The notes under the pieces: generated by a model
What the model was told of the DNA's origin: nothing
The model's database searches: none
What the model saw: only the letters and a program-made list of their open reading frames with translations
Source of the DNA: Nitrososphaerota archaeon
Lineage (GTDB): Archaea; Thermoproteota; Nitrososphaeria; PSMU01
Length of the DNA stretch: 64,000 nt
Reading direction: 5' to 3'
Assembly: GCA_040290255.1 (NCBI GenBank)
Contig: PSMU01000001.1
Location: 198,723 to 262,722, forward strand
In this document: piece after piece, positions 17,434 to 54,555 of the stretch
Layout of the letters: each line of letters opens with the position of its first letter
Position numbering within the stretch: the stretch's first letter is position 1
Program-made: the position numbers and the translations under genes

Positions 17434-17545
17434 ATAGCGGGGGTTCTCCCCTGCGGCTACAGGTGTGGATTTGAATTCGGCGCCCTAGGCTCCACCGACC
17501 TCCGGGTTATGAGCCCGGCGGGGTAACCTGGCTCCCCTACCCCGC
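17434..17545 (-). tRNA. initiator-type tRNA-Met (CAT) with two putative introns (about 16 nt and 21 nt) in the T-arm region
   Basis: Minus strand: acceptor AGCGGGG / CCCCGCT (A1:U72), D-arm GGGG-AGCCAGGTTA-CCCC, anticodon arm CCGGG-CTCATAA-CCCGG with three G:C pairs, T-loop TTCAAAT; 112 nt span needs about 37 nt of insertion to give a 75 nt tRNA. Confidence 0.55.
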
Positions 17546-17586
17546 TGGCGCCCAAGCGGGCCCCCTCTAATATAGGCCTTTCGGTG

Positions 17587-27934: not shown

Positions 27935-29500
27935 GTGGCAAGGGAGGACCTGCTCGACCGCCTCAAGGCGCTGGCCAGGATCGTGGAGGAGGGCATCGAC
28001 CCCTATCCTCACAGCTTCACGCCCACCCACGCCATAGCCGAGATAAGGAGGGCCAACCAGGGCGAGCTAAGGCTGAAGGGCCCGCTCGCGACCGCGGGGA
28101 GGGTGATGGCCATCAGGAGGCACGGGAAGGTGCTCTTCGCGGACCTGCTGGATGAAGGCGAGCGGCTTCAGATCTACCTCACCGCTGAGCGGCTGGGCGA
28201 CAGGTATTCCTGGTTCCTCAGGAACATCAACAGGGGCGACTTCCTGGGCGTAAGGGGCGAGCTCTTCTTCACGCAGAAGGGCGAGCTCACGCTGAATGTG
28301 GATGAGTACGTGCTGCTGGCCAAGTCCCTGCTCGAGCTGCCCAGCAAGTGGCATGGGCTCAGGGACGTGGAGGAGAGGTACAGGAAGAGGTACCTGGACC
28401 TACTGCTGAACGGCGAGGCCAGAAGGATCCTGCTGGTGCGCTTCTCGCTCATCAGGGAGCTCAGGAGGCAGCTGGAGGCCCGTGGGTTCATAGAGGTCGA
28501 GACGCCCATCCTCCAGCCCCTCTATGGAGGGGCCGCGGCCCGCCCCTTCAGGACGACGATAAGGGCCCTGGGCGAGGAGTGGTACCTGAGGATCTCGGAG
28601 GAGCTGCCGCTGAAGAAGCTGCTGGTGGCGGGCTTCGATAGGGTCTACGAGATAGGGAAGGTCTTCAGGAACGAAGACATAGACGTCATGCACAACCCCG
28701 AGTTCACGATGCTGGAGGCCTACCAGGCCTATGCGGACTACAACGACATGATGAGGCTCGCCGAGGAGGTGCTCTGCGCCGCCATCAGGGGCGTGCTGGG
28801 GGGCTATAGGGTGAGCTGGATGGGCAAGGAGCTGGACTTCACGCCGCCCTGGCGGCGCATAAGGCTCTACGAGGCCCTCGAGAAGTACGCCGGCGTGCGC
28901 GCCCAGGAGGCGGCGGAGGAGGAGCTGCGCTCGCTCCTCAGGCAGAAGGGGCTCGAGGCGCCCAGCGAGATGCCCCGGGGGCTCCTGCTGGAGAAGGTCT
29001 TCGACCTCTACTGCAGGCCTCAGCTGCTGAACCCCACCTTCGTGCTCGACTATCCTCGTGAGACGACGCCGCTCTGCAAGCCCCATAGGGCCCAGCCGGG
29101 GCTCGTGGAGCGCTTCGAGCTGTTCGCGGGCGGGCTCGAGCTGGCCAACGCCTACAGCGAGCTGAACAATCCGCTGCTGCAGCACAGGTTCTTCCTGGAG
29201 GAGCAGAGGATACATGCGGCGGAGGTGGAGATGGCCCACCGCTATGACGCGGACTTCGTGGAGGCGCTGATGTACGGCATGCCGCCCGCCGGCGGCATCG
29301 GAATAGGCATCGACAGGCTGGCCATGCTGCTGGCCGGGGCCCCGAGCATAAAGGAGGTGCTGCTGGCGCCCATCATGAAGAGGGTCCTCAATCCATCGCC
29401 CTTCGAGGGCGTAGAGGTGGAGGAGCTGACGCGCAAGTTCTTAAAGGAGGCGCCCCCGCTCAGGCCAGGGACGGGCCAGTGGTCTAGCCTGGTAGGATGA
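27935..29500 (+). CDS. lysS: lysyl-tRNA synthetase, class II
   Basis: Anticodon-binding OB domain plus class II motifs (KVFRNEDIDVMHNPEFTMLEAYQAY, GGIGIGIDRLAML); GTG start; last 28 nt overlap tRNA-Val. Confidence 0.9.
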   Translation: MAREDLLDRLKALARIVEEGIDPYPHSFTPTHAIAEIRRANQGELRLKGPLATAGRVMAIRRHGKVLFADLLDEGERLQIYLTAERLGDRYSWFLRNINRGDFLGVRGELFFTQKGELTLNVDEYVLLAKSLLELPSKWHGLRDVEERYRKRYLDLLLNGEARRILLVRFSLIRELRRQLEARGFIEVETPILQPLYGGAAARPFRTTIRALGEEWYLRISEELPLKKLLVAGFDRVYEIGKVFRNEDIDVMHNPEFTMLEAYQAYADYNDMMRLAEEVLCAAIRGVLGGYRVSWMGKELDFTPPWRRIRLYEALEKYAGVRAQEAAEEELRSLLRQKGLEAPSEMPRGLLLEKVFDLYCRPQLLNPTFVLDYPRETTPLCKPHRAQPGLVERFELFAGGLELANAYSELNNPLLQHRFFLEEQRIHAAEVEMAHRYDADFVEALMYGMPPAGGIGIGIDRLAMLLAGAPSIKEVLLAPIMKRVLNPSPFEGVEVEELTRKFLKEAPPLRPGTGQWSSLVG

Positions 29501-29546
29501 CGCCCTTACACGGCGTTGGTCGCCGGTTCAAATCCGGCCTGGCCCA
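29473..29546 (+). tRNA. tRNA-Val (TAC), intron-less
   Basis: Acceptor GGGCCAG / CTGGCCC, anticodon arm ACGCC-CTTACAC-GGCGT, T-arm GCCGG-TTCAAAT-CCGGC; 74 nt; CCA not encoded. Confidence 0.8.
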
Positions 29547-29551
29547 CCCGC

Positions 29552-49746: not shown

Positions 49747-49839
49747 TGCTCCGGGCGGGAGTTCCATGGCGCGCCACTTTGAACCCGCGATCTGCGGCTC
49801 GAAAGGCCGCTATGCTTGACCGGGCTACACCACCGGAGC
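49747..49839 (-). tRNA. tRNA-Glu (TTC) with a ~17 nt insertion (putative intron) in the T-loop
   Basis: Minus strand: GCTCCGG-TG-GTGT-AGCCCGGTCAA-GCAT-A-GCGGC-CTTTCGA-GCCGC-AGATC-GCGGG-TTCAAA[gtggcgcgccatggaac]T-CCCGC-CCGGAGC-A; exons resemble archaeal tRNA-Glu. Confidence 0.6.
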
Positions 49840-49917: not shown

Positions 49918-50019
49918 GGGCCCGTAGCTCAGCCTGGCAGAGCGACCGGCTCATAGCCTGCTGGGAGACCGGTCGGTCGTGGGATCGAAAGGCCTAGCTC
50001 GAGGAGCCCACCGGGCCCA
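49918..50019 (+). tRNA. tRNA with CAT anticodon (elongator Met or Ile2), 12 nt canonical-position intron plus ~16 nt T-arm insertion
   Basis: GGGCCCG-TA-GCTC-AGCCTGGCA-GAGC-G-ACCGG-CTCATA[gcctgctgggag]A-CCGGT-CGGTC-GTGGG-(23 nt)-CCCAC-CGGGCCC-A; T-loop residue 54 would be A in any splice model; 3' end overlaps the stop region of the convergent CDS. Confidence 0.5.
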
Positions 50020-51661
50020 CCTTCTTGAGCTCCTCCTCCAGCGCCGCGAGCTGCCGCTCGCCCCGCCTTAGGCCCGCCTCGAGCTCCCTCCTGAAGGCCT
50101 CGCCCCTTATGAGGCCCTGGCCTCCCCTCCTGAGCAGGGAGATCAGGTCCCTGATGGCCTTCTCCTCCTGGCGCTCCTGGGCCAGCGCCGCCCTGTAGCC
50201 CTTTAGCTCCGGCATCGCCCCCAGGGCCTCCCTGAGCTCCTCGAGCCTCCTCAGCAGCGCCTCACGCCTGGGAGCCAGCTGGGAGTAGAGCTCCAGCAGC
50301 TCGGGGGCCGGGGCGCCCTTGGCCGAGGAGCTAGCCAGCGCGGTGAGGAGCCCACGGTCGAGCTTGGCGCGCTCCTTTAGCAGCGAGAGCAGGAGCTCGG
50401 CCCTTCTCAGGGGGCTCTCCTCCCTTATCACGCGGCCCAGGGCCAGGTGGATGCCCCAGAGGGCCACCAGGATGAGCGCCCAGAGCCCCTGCAGCTGAGA
50501 GGCGGGCGAGGCCAAGCCGGGCTGCAGGAGCAGCGGCGCCGTCTCCATAACGGCGAGCGGCGAGAGCCCCTGTAGCGAGAGGCCCGCGGAGCGCGAGGCC
50601 CAGGCCGGGGCTACGGCCAACGTGAAGTTATCGACGATGCCCTGCACGGGGCTAAAGGCCAGCCCCTTGGCGCTAAAGCCCCAGGGCGTGGGCGTGAAGA
50701 GCGAGGGCGAGTAATAGTGGAGGGTCAGCCGCTCGCTGCTGCCCGGCGCTATGCTTCTGCCCAGCGCTGCCAGGTCCAGCTCCCCCTGGGTGAGCGAGGC
50801 GGAGGCCGAGGAGCCGGGGATGGGGCCCGGGGGCGCCGGCAGGTAAAGCGTCGCCACGTCCGGCGGGAGGTTAAGAGGGAGGCTGGTGAGCGTGGTCCCG
50901 CCGAGGTTTTGGATCAGGATCACATCCTCGATGAAGGGCTGCGCGGTGCCGTTGAGCTGCACCTTCCTTATCACCTCAGGAAAGCGCAGCGCGCTCAGGC
51001 GCGCGCCGCTTCCCAGCTGCAGCGTAAGGTTGTAGAGCCTGGGCTCAAGGAGCCTCGCGGCCCCCGTTGAGTTCGAGTACACGCTGCCCGAGGGCAGCTG
51101 GCTCACCTTCGTGAAGTTGACGCCGAGCGCGCTCACGCCCTGGGGCAGGGCCAGGGAGAGCGTAAAGTTCCTCAGCTCCAGGCCCGGGGAGAGGGAGGGC
51201 AGCGGCAGCGCTAGGCTCATGTTCTGCCCGCCCAGGGGGCGCAGCAGCCCCCCTGCCCCCCTAAGGAAGAAGCTCAGGCTCACGGACTCATTGGCCGAGG
51301 GGGGGAGCAGCCCCGGCCCCGGCCGAAGCGCTATGGGGCCCCCCGCTTGGGCGCTCACGTTAACGGGCACGGGCCCTCGCACGCTGAACGACCAGCTCAG
51401 GGGGCCGGGCGGCAGGGCGGCGCTGAAGGCCTCAGGAAGGCGCAGCTCCAGCGAGGGAATGGGGGCGGACGCGTTCGAGGGGGCCAGAAAGGCCATCGTC
51501 ACGTTCAGGCGCACGAAGCCGGTGGGCAGCACCTGGTAGGCCAGGGTGAGCGAGACGCCGGGTTCGCCGCCCTGGGCGGAGGCGGGGGCCAGCAGCGCGA
51601 GGAGCAGCAGCAAGGAAAGGAGGGGAGAGCAGCGGGCCACGCCGCCCCTTTGCGCCCTCAT
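49994..51661 (-). CDS. membrane-anchored extracellular glycoprotein with cytoplasmic coiled-coil tail
   Basis: Signal peptide (LLSLLLLLALLAPASA), at least ten N-x-S/T sequons in a ~390 aa ectodomain, one TM helix (LWALILVALWGIHLAL), ~150 aa charged helical C-terminus. Confidence 0.65.
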   Translation of the reverse strand: MRAQRGGVARCSPLLSLLLLLALLAPASAQGGEPGVSLTLAYQVLPTGFVRLNVTMAFLAPSNASAPIPSLELRLPEAFSAALPPGPLSWSFSVRGPVPVNVSAQAGGPIALRPGPGLLPPSANESVSLSFFLRGAGGLLRPLGGQNMSLALPLPSLSPGLELRNFTLSLALPQGVSALGVNFTKVSQLPSGSVYSNSTGAARLLEPRLYNLTLQLGSGARLSALRFPEVIRKVQLNGTAQPFIEDVILIQNLGGTTLTSLPLNLPPDVATLYLPAPPGPIPGSSASASLTQGELDLAALGRSIAPGSSERLTLHYYSPSLFTPTPWGFSAKGLAFSPVQGIVDNFTLAVAPAWASRSAGLSLQGLSPLAVMETAPLLLQPGLASPASQLQGLWALILVALWGIHLALGRVIREESPLRRAELLLSLLKERAKLDRGLLTALASSSAKGAPAPELLELYSQLAPRREALLRRLEELREALGAMPELKGYRAALAQERQEEKAIRDLISLLRRGGQGLIRGEAFRRELEAGLRRGERQLAALEEELKKVGPVGSSS

Positions 51662-51668
51662 AATTAAG

Positions 51669-53180
51669 CTAGCCCTCCGCCTTGGGCTCGAGGGCCCTGA
51701 GCTGCCTCCAGGTGACGCAGAGCGTGAGCGGGTGCGAGGCCCTCACCTCATCCACCCTTTGGGCCGCGGCGTTATGAGGGGCCCTGCGAAGGGTTGAGGC
51801 CCTCTCCTTACAGGCGGCGATCAGGGCCTCCGCGAAGGCGTCCAGCTCCTCCTTTGTGGCCGACTCCGTGGGCTCTATCATGAGGGCCTCCTCCACGATC
51901 TGCGGGAAGTACACGGTGGGCGCGTGGTGGCCGTAGTCCAGCAGCCTCTTGGCCAGGTCCCAGGCCCTGACCCCCCTCTTCCTGAGCCTGGCGCTGGGCG
52001 CTATTACGAACTCGTGCTTCCTGTGCTTCTCGGGCCTGTAGGGAAGCTCGAAGTAGCCGGACCGAAGCAGCCTCCTGAGCAGGTAGTTGGAGTGCAGGAC
52101 CGAGAGCTCGGCGACCCTCCTTAGCCCCGCCGCGCCCAGCGATAGGATATACGCATAGGCCCTGACGAGCACGGGGATCTGGCCGTAAAAGGCCCTCGCC
52201 CTCCCTATGCTCAGCGGCCGATCGTAATCCAGGAAGTAGCGCCTCCCGTCGAAGGCTATCAGAGGCGCGGGCAGATAGGGCTCGAGCTGGGCGCTCACCC
52301 CTAGGGGCCCCGCGCCAGGCCCCCCTCCTCCATGAGGGGTCGAGAAGGTCTTGTGCAGGTTCACGTGCACGATATCGAAGCCCATGTCGGCCGGGCGGGC
52401 GATGCCCAGGAGGCTGTTAAGGTTCGCCCCATCGTAATAAAGCAGCCCGCCCGCCTCATGTATTATATCGGCTATCTCCGAGATCCTCCGCTCGAAGATC
52501 CCCAACGTGTTCGGGTTCGTGAGCATGAGCCCCGCCGTCCTGGGGCCCACGGCCGCCTTCAGGGCCTCCACGTCCACGCAGCCCTCCTCATCCGAGCGAA
52601 TGACCCTGACCCTGAACCCCGCGAGGCTCGCGCTCGCGAAGTTCGAGCCGTGCGCGCTATCGGGCACCAGGACCTCCTGCCTCTCCTCTCCCCTCCTCCT
52701 GAAGAAGGCCCTCATGATGCTCACGCCGCAGAACTCGCCGCTGGAGCCCGCGGGGGGCTGGAGCGAGAAGCGCGCCATGCCCGTGATCTCGCACAGCATC
52801 TGCTCCAGCTCATAAAGGAGCGCCAGCAGCCCCTGCACGCTCTCCTCCGCCTGATAGGGGTGAAGCTCCCGCAGCGCCTCCAGCGCTGCCAGCGCATCGT
52901 TCACCTTCGGGTTGTACTTCATCGTGCAGCTGCCGAGCGGGTAGAAGCCTAGGTCGACGCCGTAGCTCTGCTGGGAGAGGCGCGTGAAGTGGCGCACGAC
53001 CTCGTGCTGGCTCAGGGAGGGGAGAGGAAGCTCCTCCCGCCTCAGCCCCGAGAGCTCCCGCTCGACCCCCTTGAGCGCCTCGCGCTCCTGAGGCGTGAGC
53101 TCCGGCAGCAGGAGGCCTATCTTGCCCGTGCCGCTGCGCTCGATCAGCAGGGGCTCCTCCCAGCGGGCCTGCCTAAACAT
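51669..53180 (-). CDS. gcvPB: glycine dehydrogenase (decarboxylating) subunit 2
   Basis: GcvPB pattern; start trimmed to ATG 53180, which overlaps the gcvPA stop. Confidence 0.9.
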   Translation of the reverse strand: MFRQARWEEPLLIERSGTGKIGLLLPELTPQEREALKGVERELSGLRREELPLPSLSQHEVVRHFTRLSQQSYGVDLGFYPLGSCTMKYNPKVNDALAALEALRELHPYQAEESVQGLLALLYELEQMLCEITGMARFSLQPPAGSSGEFCGVSIMRAFFRRRGEERQEVLVPDSAHGSNFASASLAGFRVRVIRSDEEGCVDVEALKAAVGPRTAGLMLTNPNTLGIFERRISEIADIIHEAGGLLYYDGANLNSLLGIARPADMGFDIVHVNLHKTFSTPHGGGGPGAGPLGVSAQLEPYLPAPLIAFDGRRYFLDYDRPLSIGRARAFYGQIPVLVRAYAYILSLGAAGLRRVAELSVLHSNYLLRRLLRSGYFELPYRPEKHRKHEFVIAPSARLRKRGVRAWDLAKRLLDYGHHAPTVYFPQIVEEALMIEPTESATKEELDAFAEALIAACKERASTLRRAPHNAAAQRVDEVRASHPLTLCVTWRQLRALEPKAEG

Positions 53181-54555
53181 GGCGCAGCGCCCCCTCGAGG
53201 GCCTTGCAGAGCTCATCTATGTCCTGCACCTCATGCACCTCCGTGACGCAGAAGAGGCCGGCCTCGCCCAGCTCGGGGTACAGGTGCGCCAGCGGGAGCC
53301 CCGCCTCGAAGCCCGCCTCGTTCAGCGTACGCCTCACCCGCGCGGCGCTGCCGCGCTCATATCCCACAGCGAAGTCCTTGAAGTGGGGAGCGCGAAAGAG
53401 CGGCGCCCTGAGCCCCTCGATGCCGGCCATCCGGCCCAACGCATAGGAGGTCCTGGCGAGGATGAGCTCGGCTAACCTGCGCAGCCCCTCCCTTCCCAGC
53501 AGGGCCAGGTAGGCCGCGGCGGCTATGGCGTAGAGGGCCTGGTTGGTCGTGATGTTCGAGGTGGCCCTCTCGCGCCTAATGTGCTGCTCCCTGGCCTGCA
53601 GGACGAGCGTGAAGGCGCGCCGACCCCCTGCATCCAGCGTGGCGCCCACGATCCTGCCCGGCATCTGCCTGAGCAGCTCCTGGCCGCGGCAGGCCATAAG
53701 GCCGAGCAGCGCGCCGCCGTAGTACATGCCCAGCCCCAGGGGTTGCCCCTCGCCCACGGCGATGTCGGCCCCCAGCTCGCCGGGGGGCTTCAGCAGCGCC
53801 AGCGAGAGCGGCTCGAAGCCCATCACGTAAAGCGCCCCCCTGGCATGGGCGAGCTCGCCCACTTCGCGCGGGTTCCTCGCGATGAACCCCAGAAAGCTGG
53901 GGCTCTCCAGGTAGACGAAGGCCGTATCGGCATCGAGCTTAGAGGCCAGGTCCTCCAGGTCCGCGGCGCCATCGGCCCGCCATCCGTACTCGTGCACGCT
54001 CATGCCCAGGGGCTCCGCATAGAGCTCGAGCACCCGCCTCCTCTCGGGCCCCATATAGCGGGGCACGAGGGCCTTCCTGCGCCTGGTGTGCCTATAGGCC
54101 ATGCGCGCCGCCTCCCCCAGCGCGGAGGCCCAGTCGTACAGCGAGGAGTTAGCGTACTCCATGCCCGTGAGCTCGCAGATCAGGCTCTGGTACTCGAAGA
54201 GCGCCTGAAGCAGGCCCTGGCTCACCTCCGCCTGATAGGGCGTGTAGGAGGTGAGAAATTCGCCCCTGGCGATGATCTGCTCCACCACGGCGGGCACGTA
54301 GTGCGGCCAGCAGCCCGCGCCCAGGAAGAGCCTGCGCCCAAATGCCCTTGTCCCCTTTAATCGGTCCTCGACCCTTCTCCTAACCTCCAGCTCGCTCAGC
54401 GGGCCCGGCAGGGCCAGGGGCCTCCTGAGCCTGACGCGCTCCGGTATATCTTGGAAGAGCTGCTCGAGCGAGCGGAGCCCCAGCTCGCGTAGCATGAGCT
54501 CCACCAGCTTCGGGTCGGAGGTGGGGAGGTAGGGATGGAGGAACTCGCGCTCCAC
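53173..54555 (-). CDS. gcvPA: glycine dehydrogenase (decarboxylating) subunit 1
   Basis: MEREFLHPYLPTSDPKLVELMLRELGL ... FLTSYTPYQAEVSQG. Confidence 0.9.
   Translation of the reverse strand: MEREFLHPYLPTSDPKLVELMLRELGLRSLEQLFQDIPERVRLRRPLALPGPLSELEVRRRVEDRLKGTRAFGRRLFLGAGCWPHYVPAVVEQIIARGEFLTSYTPYQAEVSQGLLQALFEYQSLICELTGMEYANSSLYDWASALGEAARMAYRHTRRRKALVPRYMGPERRRVLELYAEPLGMSVHEYGWRADGAADLEDLASKLDADTAFVYLESPSFLGFIARNPREVGELAHARGALYVMGFEPLSLALLKPPGELGADIAVGEGQPLGLGMYYGGALLGLMACRGQELLRQMPGRIVGATLDAGGRRAFTLVLQAREQHIRRERATSNITTNQALYAIAAAAYLALLGREGLRRLAELILARTSYALGRMAGIEGLRAPLFRAPHFKDFAVGYERGSAARVRRTLNEAGFEAGLPLAHLYPELGEAGLFCVTEVHEVQDIDELCKALEGALRHV

Follow-up and report, generated by a model that had tools for sequence, protein, structure and literature searches.

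A 17-nt non-canonical intron at T-loop position 59/60 of an archaeal tRNA-Glu(UUC) gene, with a predicted strict bulge-helix-bulge and covarying introns in relatives

Introduction

Non-canonical introns of archaeal tRNA genes, with the hBHBh' motif at T-loop position 59/60 among them, were reportedly described by Marck and Grosjean in 2003 and by Sugahara and co-workers in 2008. Fujishima and co-workers are said to have found, in 2010, transposed introns in Thermoproteales, in which near-identical sequences recur within a genome, at other tRNAs or other positions.

Position 59/60 is listed among the non-canonical intron positions of archaeal tRNAs (PMC4090602). In the archaeal bulge-helix-bulge (BHB) motif, each of the two strands has a 3-nt bulge, the bulges are separated by 4 bp, and each is cut after its second nucleotide (PMC4090602, PMC3241643). 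The (alpha-beta)2 form of the archaeal tRNA-splicing endonuclease (EndA) with a specific loop, an enzyme that cleaves non-canonical introns, is conserved in Thaumarchaeota, Aigarchaeota and Crenarchaeota (PMC5829648, PMC3241643). For the D-loop intron of pre-tRNA-Thr2(UGU) of Aeropyrum pernix, cleavage was obtained in vitro with (alpha-beta)2 EndA alone, without guide RNA or modification (PMC3241643). Among 498 tRNA genes of 11 Thaumarchaeota genomes, 107 non-canonical and 93 canonical introns were counted, and 39 genes carried two; tRNAscan-SE 2.0 accordingly has a clade-specific BHB covariance model for Thaumarchaeota (PMC8450103). The supplement of that paper gives intron counts per clade, without per-gene positions. 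T-arm introns also occur in Aigarchaeota (PMC3293823).

Here we describe a tRNA-Glu(UUC) gene with a 17-nt intron at position 59/60, located in a 64,000-nt stretch of archaeal DNA (hereafter, the window). Compared with the known hBHBh' introns at 59/60 (PMC4090602), the window intron has the same position, the same two 3-nt bulges, 4-bp helix and flanking T-stem, and a similarly short length, and its removal likewise restores a standard cloverleaf. Nothing essential differs from those introns; the host belongs to an uncultured high-GC lineage, and the 3' bulge is ACU, as against the AG or AA endings found elsewhere at the tRNA-Glu site. The likeness to the Thaumarchaeota introns (PMC8450103) extends to exons that are nearly identical to tRNA-Glu(UUC) of Nitrosocaldus and Nitrososphaerales, the same insertion site, the nuo-tRNA-Glu synteny and a high intron density, whereas the GC content is 66-68% in the host genome and 33-55% in the intron-bearing relatives. 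The pre-tRNA-Thr2(UGU) of A. pernix provides a mechanistic precedent, as both precursors have a canonical BHB at a non-standard position of the tRNA core; however, that intron lies in the D-loop of a crenarchaeal tRNA and the present one in the T-loop at 59/60, a position absent from the substrates of PMC3241643. The window carries five introns in four tRNAs, a density like that reported for Nitrososphaerales and Thermoproteales. Compared with the transposed introns of Thermoproteales, the tRNA-Glu intron has no obvious likeness to the other four introns of the window, as judged by eye across its four tRNAs. The intron is thus ordinary for TACK archaea: both the 59/60 position and the abundance of non-canonical introns in Thaumarchaeota have already been published.

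Results

The tRNA-Glu(UUC) gene and its features are listed in Table 1 together with the other features of the window. Read from G1 to the discriminator, the gene is GCTCCGG-TG-GTGT-AGCCCGGTCAA-GCAT-A-GCGGC-CTTTCGA-GCCGC-AGATC-GCGGG-TTCAAA-(GTGGCGCGCCATGGAAC)-T-CCCGC-CCGGAGC-A, with the intron in parentheses. All arms of a tRNA-Glu(UUC) are present in the precursor, the anticodon loop being CUUUCGA (anticodon UUC), and the T-loop alone is interrupted, by the 17 nt that sit between TTCAAA and TCCCGC. The CCA 3' end is not encoded. In silico deletion of the 17 nt gave a 76-nt cloverleaf with the T-loop TTCAAAT and all stems intact, which ARAGORN identified as tRNA-Glu(ttc). The first-pass annotation had placed a tRNA-Glu(TTC) at 49747-49839, with an intron at 59/60 whose removal restores TTCAAAT. 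These coordinates proved exact, on the minus strand; the spliced 76-mer has the T-loop named there, and no register other than 59/60 yields the same mature sequence.

Table 1. Positions of the tRNA genes, their parts and neighbouring features in the window.
Feature	Position	Strand	Remarks
Initiator-type tRNA(CAT)	17435..17546	-	A1:U72; three G-C pairs at anticodon-stem base
GCCTAG in T-arm intron of initiator-type tRNA(CAT)	17485..17490	-	
LysRS	27935..29500	+	class II
tRNA-Val(TAC)	29473..29548		uninterrupted
tRNA-Glu(UUC) gene	49747..49839	-	precursor 93 nt; G1 = 49839, discriminator A73 = 49747
5' exon, tRNA-Glu positions 1-59	49778..49839	-	62 nt, ends ...GCGGGUUCAAA; identical to L095 orthologue
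Intron of tRNA-Glu	49761..49777	-	17 nt, GUGGCGCGCCAUGGAAC; position 59/60
3' exon, tRNA-Glu positions 60-73	49747..49760	-	UCCCGCCCGGAGCA
BHB motif of tRNA-Glu	49755..49788	-	strict hBHBh'; fits predicted geometry exactly
BHB central helix, exon strand UUCA (54-57)	49783..49780	-	
BHB central helix, intron strand UGGA	49766..49763	-	
TATA-like box TTTTAA	49863..49868	-	-29..-24 from first tRNA-Glu base
Second tRNA(CAT)	49918..50019	+	78 bp from tRNA-Glu, opposite strand; G1:C72
GCCTAG in T-arm intron of second tRNA(CAT)	49992..49997	+	
555-aa ORF	49994..51661	-	
GcvPB	51669..53216	-	

The spliced tRNA-Glu is collinear with the intron-less tRNA-Glu(UUC) of Nitrososphaeria (Thaumarchaeota) MAGs, with identity at 70-74 of 76 positions. 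When the raw window was searched, the unspliced gene was called neither by ARAGORN nor by Rfam at the gathering threshold; at E<=10, Rfam returned a partial match of 21 bits in which the acceptor stem was skipped. Upstream of the gene, by about 24-30 nt, CTTTTAAG is kept in the window and in its closest relative (contig L095, described below) amid an otherwise diverged spacer (alignment A1). The TTTTAA element is a plausible archaeal TATA box and thus a predicted promoter.

When the BHB geometry is applied to the 59/60 junction, it predicts a 5' bulge composed of A58, A59 and the first intron nucleotide, a central helix between U54-A57 and the intron nucleotides third to sixth from the 3' end, a 3' bulge composed of the last two intron nucleotides and U60, and the T-stem as one of the flanking helices. 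In the tRNA-Glu precursor, the outer helix is the 5-bp T-stem GCGGG/CCCGC, and UUCA pairs with UGGA at four of four positions (U-A, U-G, C-G and A-U). The bulges are A58 A59|G on the 5' side and A C|U60 on the 3' side, each of 3 nt with the splice site after its second nucleotide, and the inner helix UGG/CCA (3 bp) is closed by CGCG. Other splice registers, from -4 to +2, either changed the mature sequence or left helices of only 0-2 bp. A 4-bp central helix accompanied by 3 bp or more of inner helix, in the 59/60 register, arose in 0.09% of shuffled introns and in 0.12% of all window 17-mers.

Neither for the whole precursor nor for the T-arm did plain MFE folding return the BHB. We therefore evaluated the BHB explicitly; it is the geometry and the comparison with relatives, rather than thermodynamics, that support it. 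In the T-arm, the BHB had an energy of -10.3 kcal/mol as against a local MFE of -12.9 (2.6 above), the latter favouring a 4-bp GUGG/CCAU hairpin with open flanks. For the whole precursor, the cloverleaf with the BHB was at -34.8 and the MFE structure at -39.1 (4.3 above); the former is near-optimal. Against shuffles, the z-score was only about -1.1. Energy models penalise 3-nt bulges and the BHB motif is bound by an enzyme, so that a BHB above the MFE was not taken as a negative result. Folding of the pre-tRNA had been proposed in the first-pass annotation as the way to look for a BHB spanning the insertion, and it bore this out in part: the intron boundaries do form a strict hBHBh' substrate, but the MFE fold is without it.

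The closest relative was identified through two proteins encoded in the window. For LysRS (77% identity) and GcvPB (78%), only one relative exceeded 63% among 5.8 billion proteins; its genes lie on JGI contigs of 777 and 339 kb, and all other matches were at or below 63%. The best named matches were those of Thermoprotei (52-55%) and Bathyarchaeia (57-60%). An exact copy of the LysRS sequence occurred in Logan and ENA only, and GcvPB was represented there by a 348-aa Logan fragment but not at full length. The GcvPB-bearing contig of the relative, L095 (GC 0.62), has the gene order nuoLMN-UbiA-Bcp-hypothetical-tRNA-Glu / tRNA(CAT)-...-gcvPB-gcvPA in common with the window. Its tRNA-Glu exons are identical to those of the window at 76 of 76 positions, and at 59/60 it has a 19-nt intron, GUGGCCUUCGCCAUGGGAA. 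This intron differs from that of the window in its loop and is 2 nt longer overall, with the inner helix lengthened to UGGC/GCCA. The intron strand of the central helix is changed from UGGA to UGGG, by which U54-A becomes U54-G with the pairing kept, and the 3' bulge has AA in place of AC; the BHB remains intact. On either side of the gene, the adjoining sequences differ for the most part between the two. Invariant exons, structure-preserving changes in the intron and diverged flanks are what a functional intron-bearing gene predicts, unlike a pseudogene. Four contigs from other samples, reached via Bcp, showed 99.8-100% identity to the window and an identical tRNA-Glu gene; they represent the same species and are therefore uninformative on conservation.

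The GC content is 64-68% throughout the window. Its genes include such typically archaeal ones as TFE, PAC2 and a RIO/Bud32-like kinase and also, by synteny with L095, eIF-1A, eIF-2 beta and MetRS. Because LysRS and GcvPB have a single relative above 63% identity, the window belongs to a sparsely sampled, high-GC archaeal lineage. The near-identity of the tRNA-Glu and the nuo-tRNA-Glu synteny suggest that the organism is nearest to Nitrososphaeria in the broad sense.

Introns at the same site were sought in other genomes with a degenerate pattern scan for tRNA-Glu loci in one genome per GTDB species. The scan returned 25 loci, nearly all labelled Thaumarchaeota or Nitrososphaeria, with exons nearly identical to those of the window. 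An insertion at 59/60 was present in 7 of the 25, including Nitrosocaldus spp. and 'Archaeon HR04', and the remaining 18 were intron-less, including the high-GC Nitrososphaeria Conexivisphaera (L020), L012 and L018. The 59/60 intron is not universal in Nitrososphaeria, since several high-GC members are without it. A metagenome scan, limited to intron-bearing tRNA-Glu genes, added 65 loci. In Nitrosocaldus-type loci, nuo genes adjoin the intron-bearing tRNA-Glu as they do in the window (tblastx). The GC content of the intron-bearing relatives is 33-55% as against 66-68% in the host genome, whose intron is correspondingly GC-rich.

The window, L095, MAGs and metagenomes together gave 37 distinct introns of 14-28 nt at position 59/60 of tRNA-Glu. 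Relatives had been named in the first-pass annotation as the comparison to make; their tRNA-Glu genes turned out not to be uniformly intron-less, as L095 and 35 further distinct sequences have a 59/60 intron with covarying helices. In the 59/60 register, the central helix has 3-4 bp in 34 of 36 introns (the set without L095), and the T-stem is the outer helix in all of them. The inner helix has 1-6 bp and very different sequences, such as UGG/CCA, CAU/AUG, CAUGC/GCAUG, GCGGC/GCUGC, AACU/GGUU and others. A central helix of at least 3 bp together with an inner helix of at least 2 bp was found in 32 of the 37 introns, compared with 1.1 expected from shuffles (maximum 6 in 2000). The position-anchored core alignment A2 (30 columns, 29 distinct rows) was trimmed from both intron ends, its register being chosen by the analyst through this trimming though not fitted to pairing. 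Within A2, 94.8% of cells are in standard pairs, as against 39-60% with the partners slid. Compensatory changes that affect both partners occur in each of the three inner-helix pairs (42 cells), and none of 500 shuffles reached the observed covariation score. Such covariation across lineages points to selection on the intron structure. The intron of L006, a MAG labelled Nitrosopumilales, shares with the window intron both its 1+3+4+3+4+2 architecture and its UGGA. At the 3' bulge, the window intron ends in AC and the other 36 of 36 introns end in AG or AA.

Two further forms of the gene were observed in metagenome contigs. Eight low-GC contigs (L038, L041, L042, L055, L063, L081, L090 and L093) carry a tRNA-Glu(UUC) that has, in addition to the 59/60 intron, a D-loop insertion of about 15 nt (GTGTAG-GCTTGCAAAAGGCAC-AGCCCGG), and are thus two-intron versions of the gene. 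The loci L031, L033 and L072 contain just the 3' part of tRNA-Glu, which runs from the anticodon stem on, includes the 59/60 intron and is preceded by unrelated coding-like sequence. The 5' half was absent from the available upstream sequence, 229 nt for L031 and 400 nt for each of the other two. These partial genes may be split tRNA genes, or att-type partial duplications that integrating elements left behind.

Apart from tRNA-Glu, three tRNAs were found in the window, of which tRNA-Val(TAC) is uninterrupted. The initiator-type tRNA(CAT) is interrupted twice in its T-arm, by AGCCTAGGGCGCCGAA at 53/54 and by ACCTGTAGCCGCAGGGGAGAA at 64/65, and was detected by Rfam in the permissive search only (33.9 bits). 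An antisense 'PyrR205' match at 17479-17536 was below threshold and probably spurious. The second tRNA(CAT) has G1:C72 and so is an elongator Met or Ile2 tRNA. It has a 12-nt intron, GCCTGCTGGGAG, at 37/38 and another of 16 nt, AGGCCTAGCTCGAGGA, for which 59/60 is the best placement; after splicing, its T-loop is the unusual AUCGAAG (A54). The unspliced gene gave no ARAGORN call and no Rfam match even at E<=10. With the inserts removed in silico, both CAT genes were recognised by ARAGORN as tRNA-Met(cat). The L095 orthologue of the second tRNA(CAT) differs from it only inside the two proposed introns, which supports their boundaries. A crude regex scan of the window for further tRNA-like genes gave only false positives inside ORFs.

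As the first-pass annotation had stated, three of the four tRNAs (tRNA-Glu and the two CAT tRNAs) have T-arm insertions, and two of these contain GCCTAG. The hexamer proved to lie in the CAT tRNAs. Counted over both strands, it is five-fold under-represented in the window, with 17 copies where 85 would be expected, and because of this rarity its presence in two of the five introns is unlikely to be a chance coincidence. The two 16-nt introns with GCCTAG are alike at about 11 of 16 positions in a hand alignment, and the L095 counterpart of the hexamer is GCCTAT. The shared hexamer could reflect related (transposed) introns or a favoured GCC-UAG-GGC hairpin.

A 555-aa ORF converges on the second tRNA(CAT) and overlaps its last 26 nt, with the TAG stop lying inside the T-loop intron of that tRNA. 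The product has no Pfam match, a signal-peptide-like N-terminus and a coiled-coil-like C-terminus. The frame and the stop position are kept in L095 (alignment A1), where no gene was called.

Discussion

We consider it very probable that the locus is a functional tRNA-Glu(UUC) gene of an uncultured TACK archaeon of high GC content (about 67%), related to Nitrososphaeria, with a 17-nt non-canonical BHB intron at position 59/60. Our analysis demonstrated the gene, its intron boundaries, the BHB geometry and the conservation and covariation in relatives; the intron-bearing gene is genuine and its function almost certain, and splicing is predicted from these sequence data. In the precursor, U54-A57 would pair with the intron UGGA instead of forming the T-loop, and the resulting 4-bp helix, flanked by the bulges A58 A59|G and A C|U60, would stack between the T-stem and the UGG-CGCG-CCA intron hairpin. 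By analogy with the enzymes described, we infer that EndA, in TACK archaea presumably of the (alpha-beta)2 type with the Crenarchaea-specific loop that handles non-canonical positions, would cleave each bulge behind its second nucleotide, at A59|G and C|U60, and that ligation would follow, an RtcB-type ligase joining A59 to U60. The normal T-loop UUCAAAU and the tRNA elbow could form after ligation. Because U54-A57 are sequestered in the central helix, T-loop/D-loop contacts would not be made until the intron is removed, and splicing would therefore precede T-loop folding, elbow formation and T-loop modification. Neither EndA nor RtcB was found among the 10 window proteins scanned against Pfam; from its TACK affiliation, the host is expected to encode a broad-specificity EndA (PMC5829648).

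The gene could instead be a pseudogene that was inactivated by a 17-bp insertion into the T-loop, with the functional tRNA-Glu(UUC) elsewhere, as standard tRNA finders do not call it, intron-less copies exist in some related lineages and the visible genome, at 64 kb, leaves room for a second copy. We regard this as very improbable. The exons match those of a relative at 76 of 76 positions although its proteins are only about 78% identical and the flanks have diverged, all stems are intact with no relaxed constraint seen, and the upstream TATA-like box is conserved. Moreover, the insertion has the exact BHB geometry, 37 distinct sequences, with compensatory changes among them, have an intron at that position, and the identical gene recurs in four near-identical contigs from different samples. 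The covariation across lineages also speaks against a scar left by a mobile element or integrase at the T-loop, such as an att-site remnant or a short duplication with incidental BHB-like pairing. Such pairing would arise by chance in about 0.1% of cases. Although tRNA 3' parts are common integration targets and the 3'-part-only loci L031, L033 and L072, intron included, resemble att-type partial duplications, the 17 nt do not duplicate flanking tRNA sequence, the gene has neither an integrase nor a foreign segment next to it, and the gene order is that of L095 and Nitrosocaldus. An integration scar is, in our judgement, extremely improbable.

The remaining alternatives accept the intron as real and concern its age. 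A recent, independent gain, related to the 'transposing' families of Thermoproteales and not orthologous to the introns of Nitrosocaldus and Nitrososphaerales, would agree with the completely different inner-helix sequences of the lineages and with the existence of intron-less high-GC Nitrososphaeria. The intron strand of the central helix (UGRR) is forced by pairing with the invariant T-loop UUCA, so that likeness there does not prove common descent, and the rare GCCTAG in two other window introns hints at relatedness of introns within the genome. However, the tRNA-Glu intron has no GCCTAG and, as judged by eye, no such motif in common with the other four window introns, its position is identical and its locus syntenic in the window, L095 and Nitrosocaldus, and L006 has the same 1+3+4+3+4+2 architecture and UGGA; we therefore consider an independent gain unlikely. 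Only tentatively, and as something we would rather doubt than assert, we raise the possibility that the 59/60 intron of tRNA-Glu(UUC) was acquired once in ancient times, inherited vertically across Nitrososphaeria, maintained by selection over hundreds of millions of years and lost only in some branches. Such a history may span Nitrosocaldales, the soil and marine ammonia oxidisers and the deep high-GC lineage of the window. The selective reason could be that the T-loop is masked from integrases, or that splicing is forced to occur before elbow formation and T-loop modification.

The tRNA-Glu intron reveals no new mechanism, and it matters mainly to annotation. Of the four tRNA genes of the window, only one is detected by ARAGORN and by Rfam at curated thresholds; an automated pipeline would therefore report tRNA-Glu(UUC), the initiator tRNA and the second tRNA(CAT) as missing at these loci. 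Through the window, an uncultured, GC-rich TACK lineage also joins the archaea whose tRNA genes are dense in introns. Many Nitrososphaeria have an intron at position 59/60 of tRNA-Glu(UUC), and the structural covariation of these introns is clear, which makes them a small, clean data set on the question of ancient versus recurrent introns. If the ancient acquisition were true, the intron would be among the oldest positionally conserved non-canonical tRNA introns and would serve as a phylogenetic marker.
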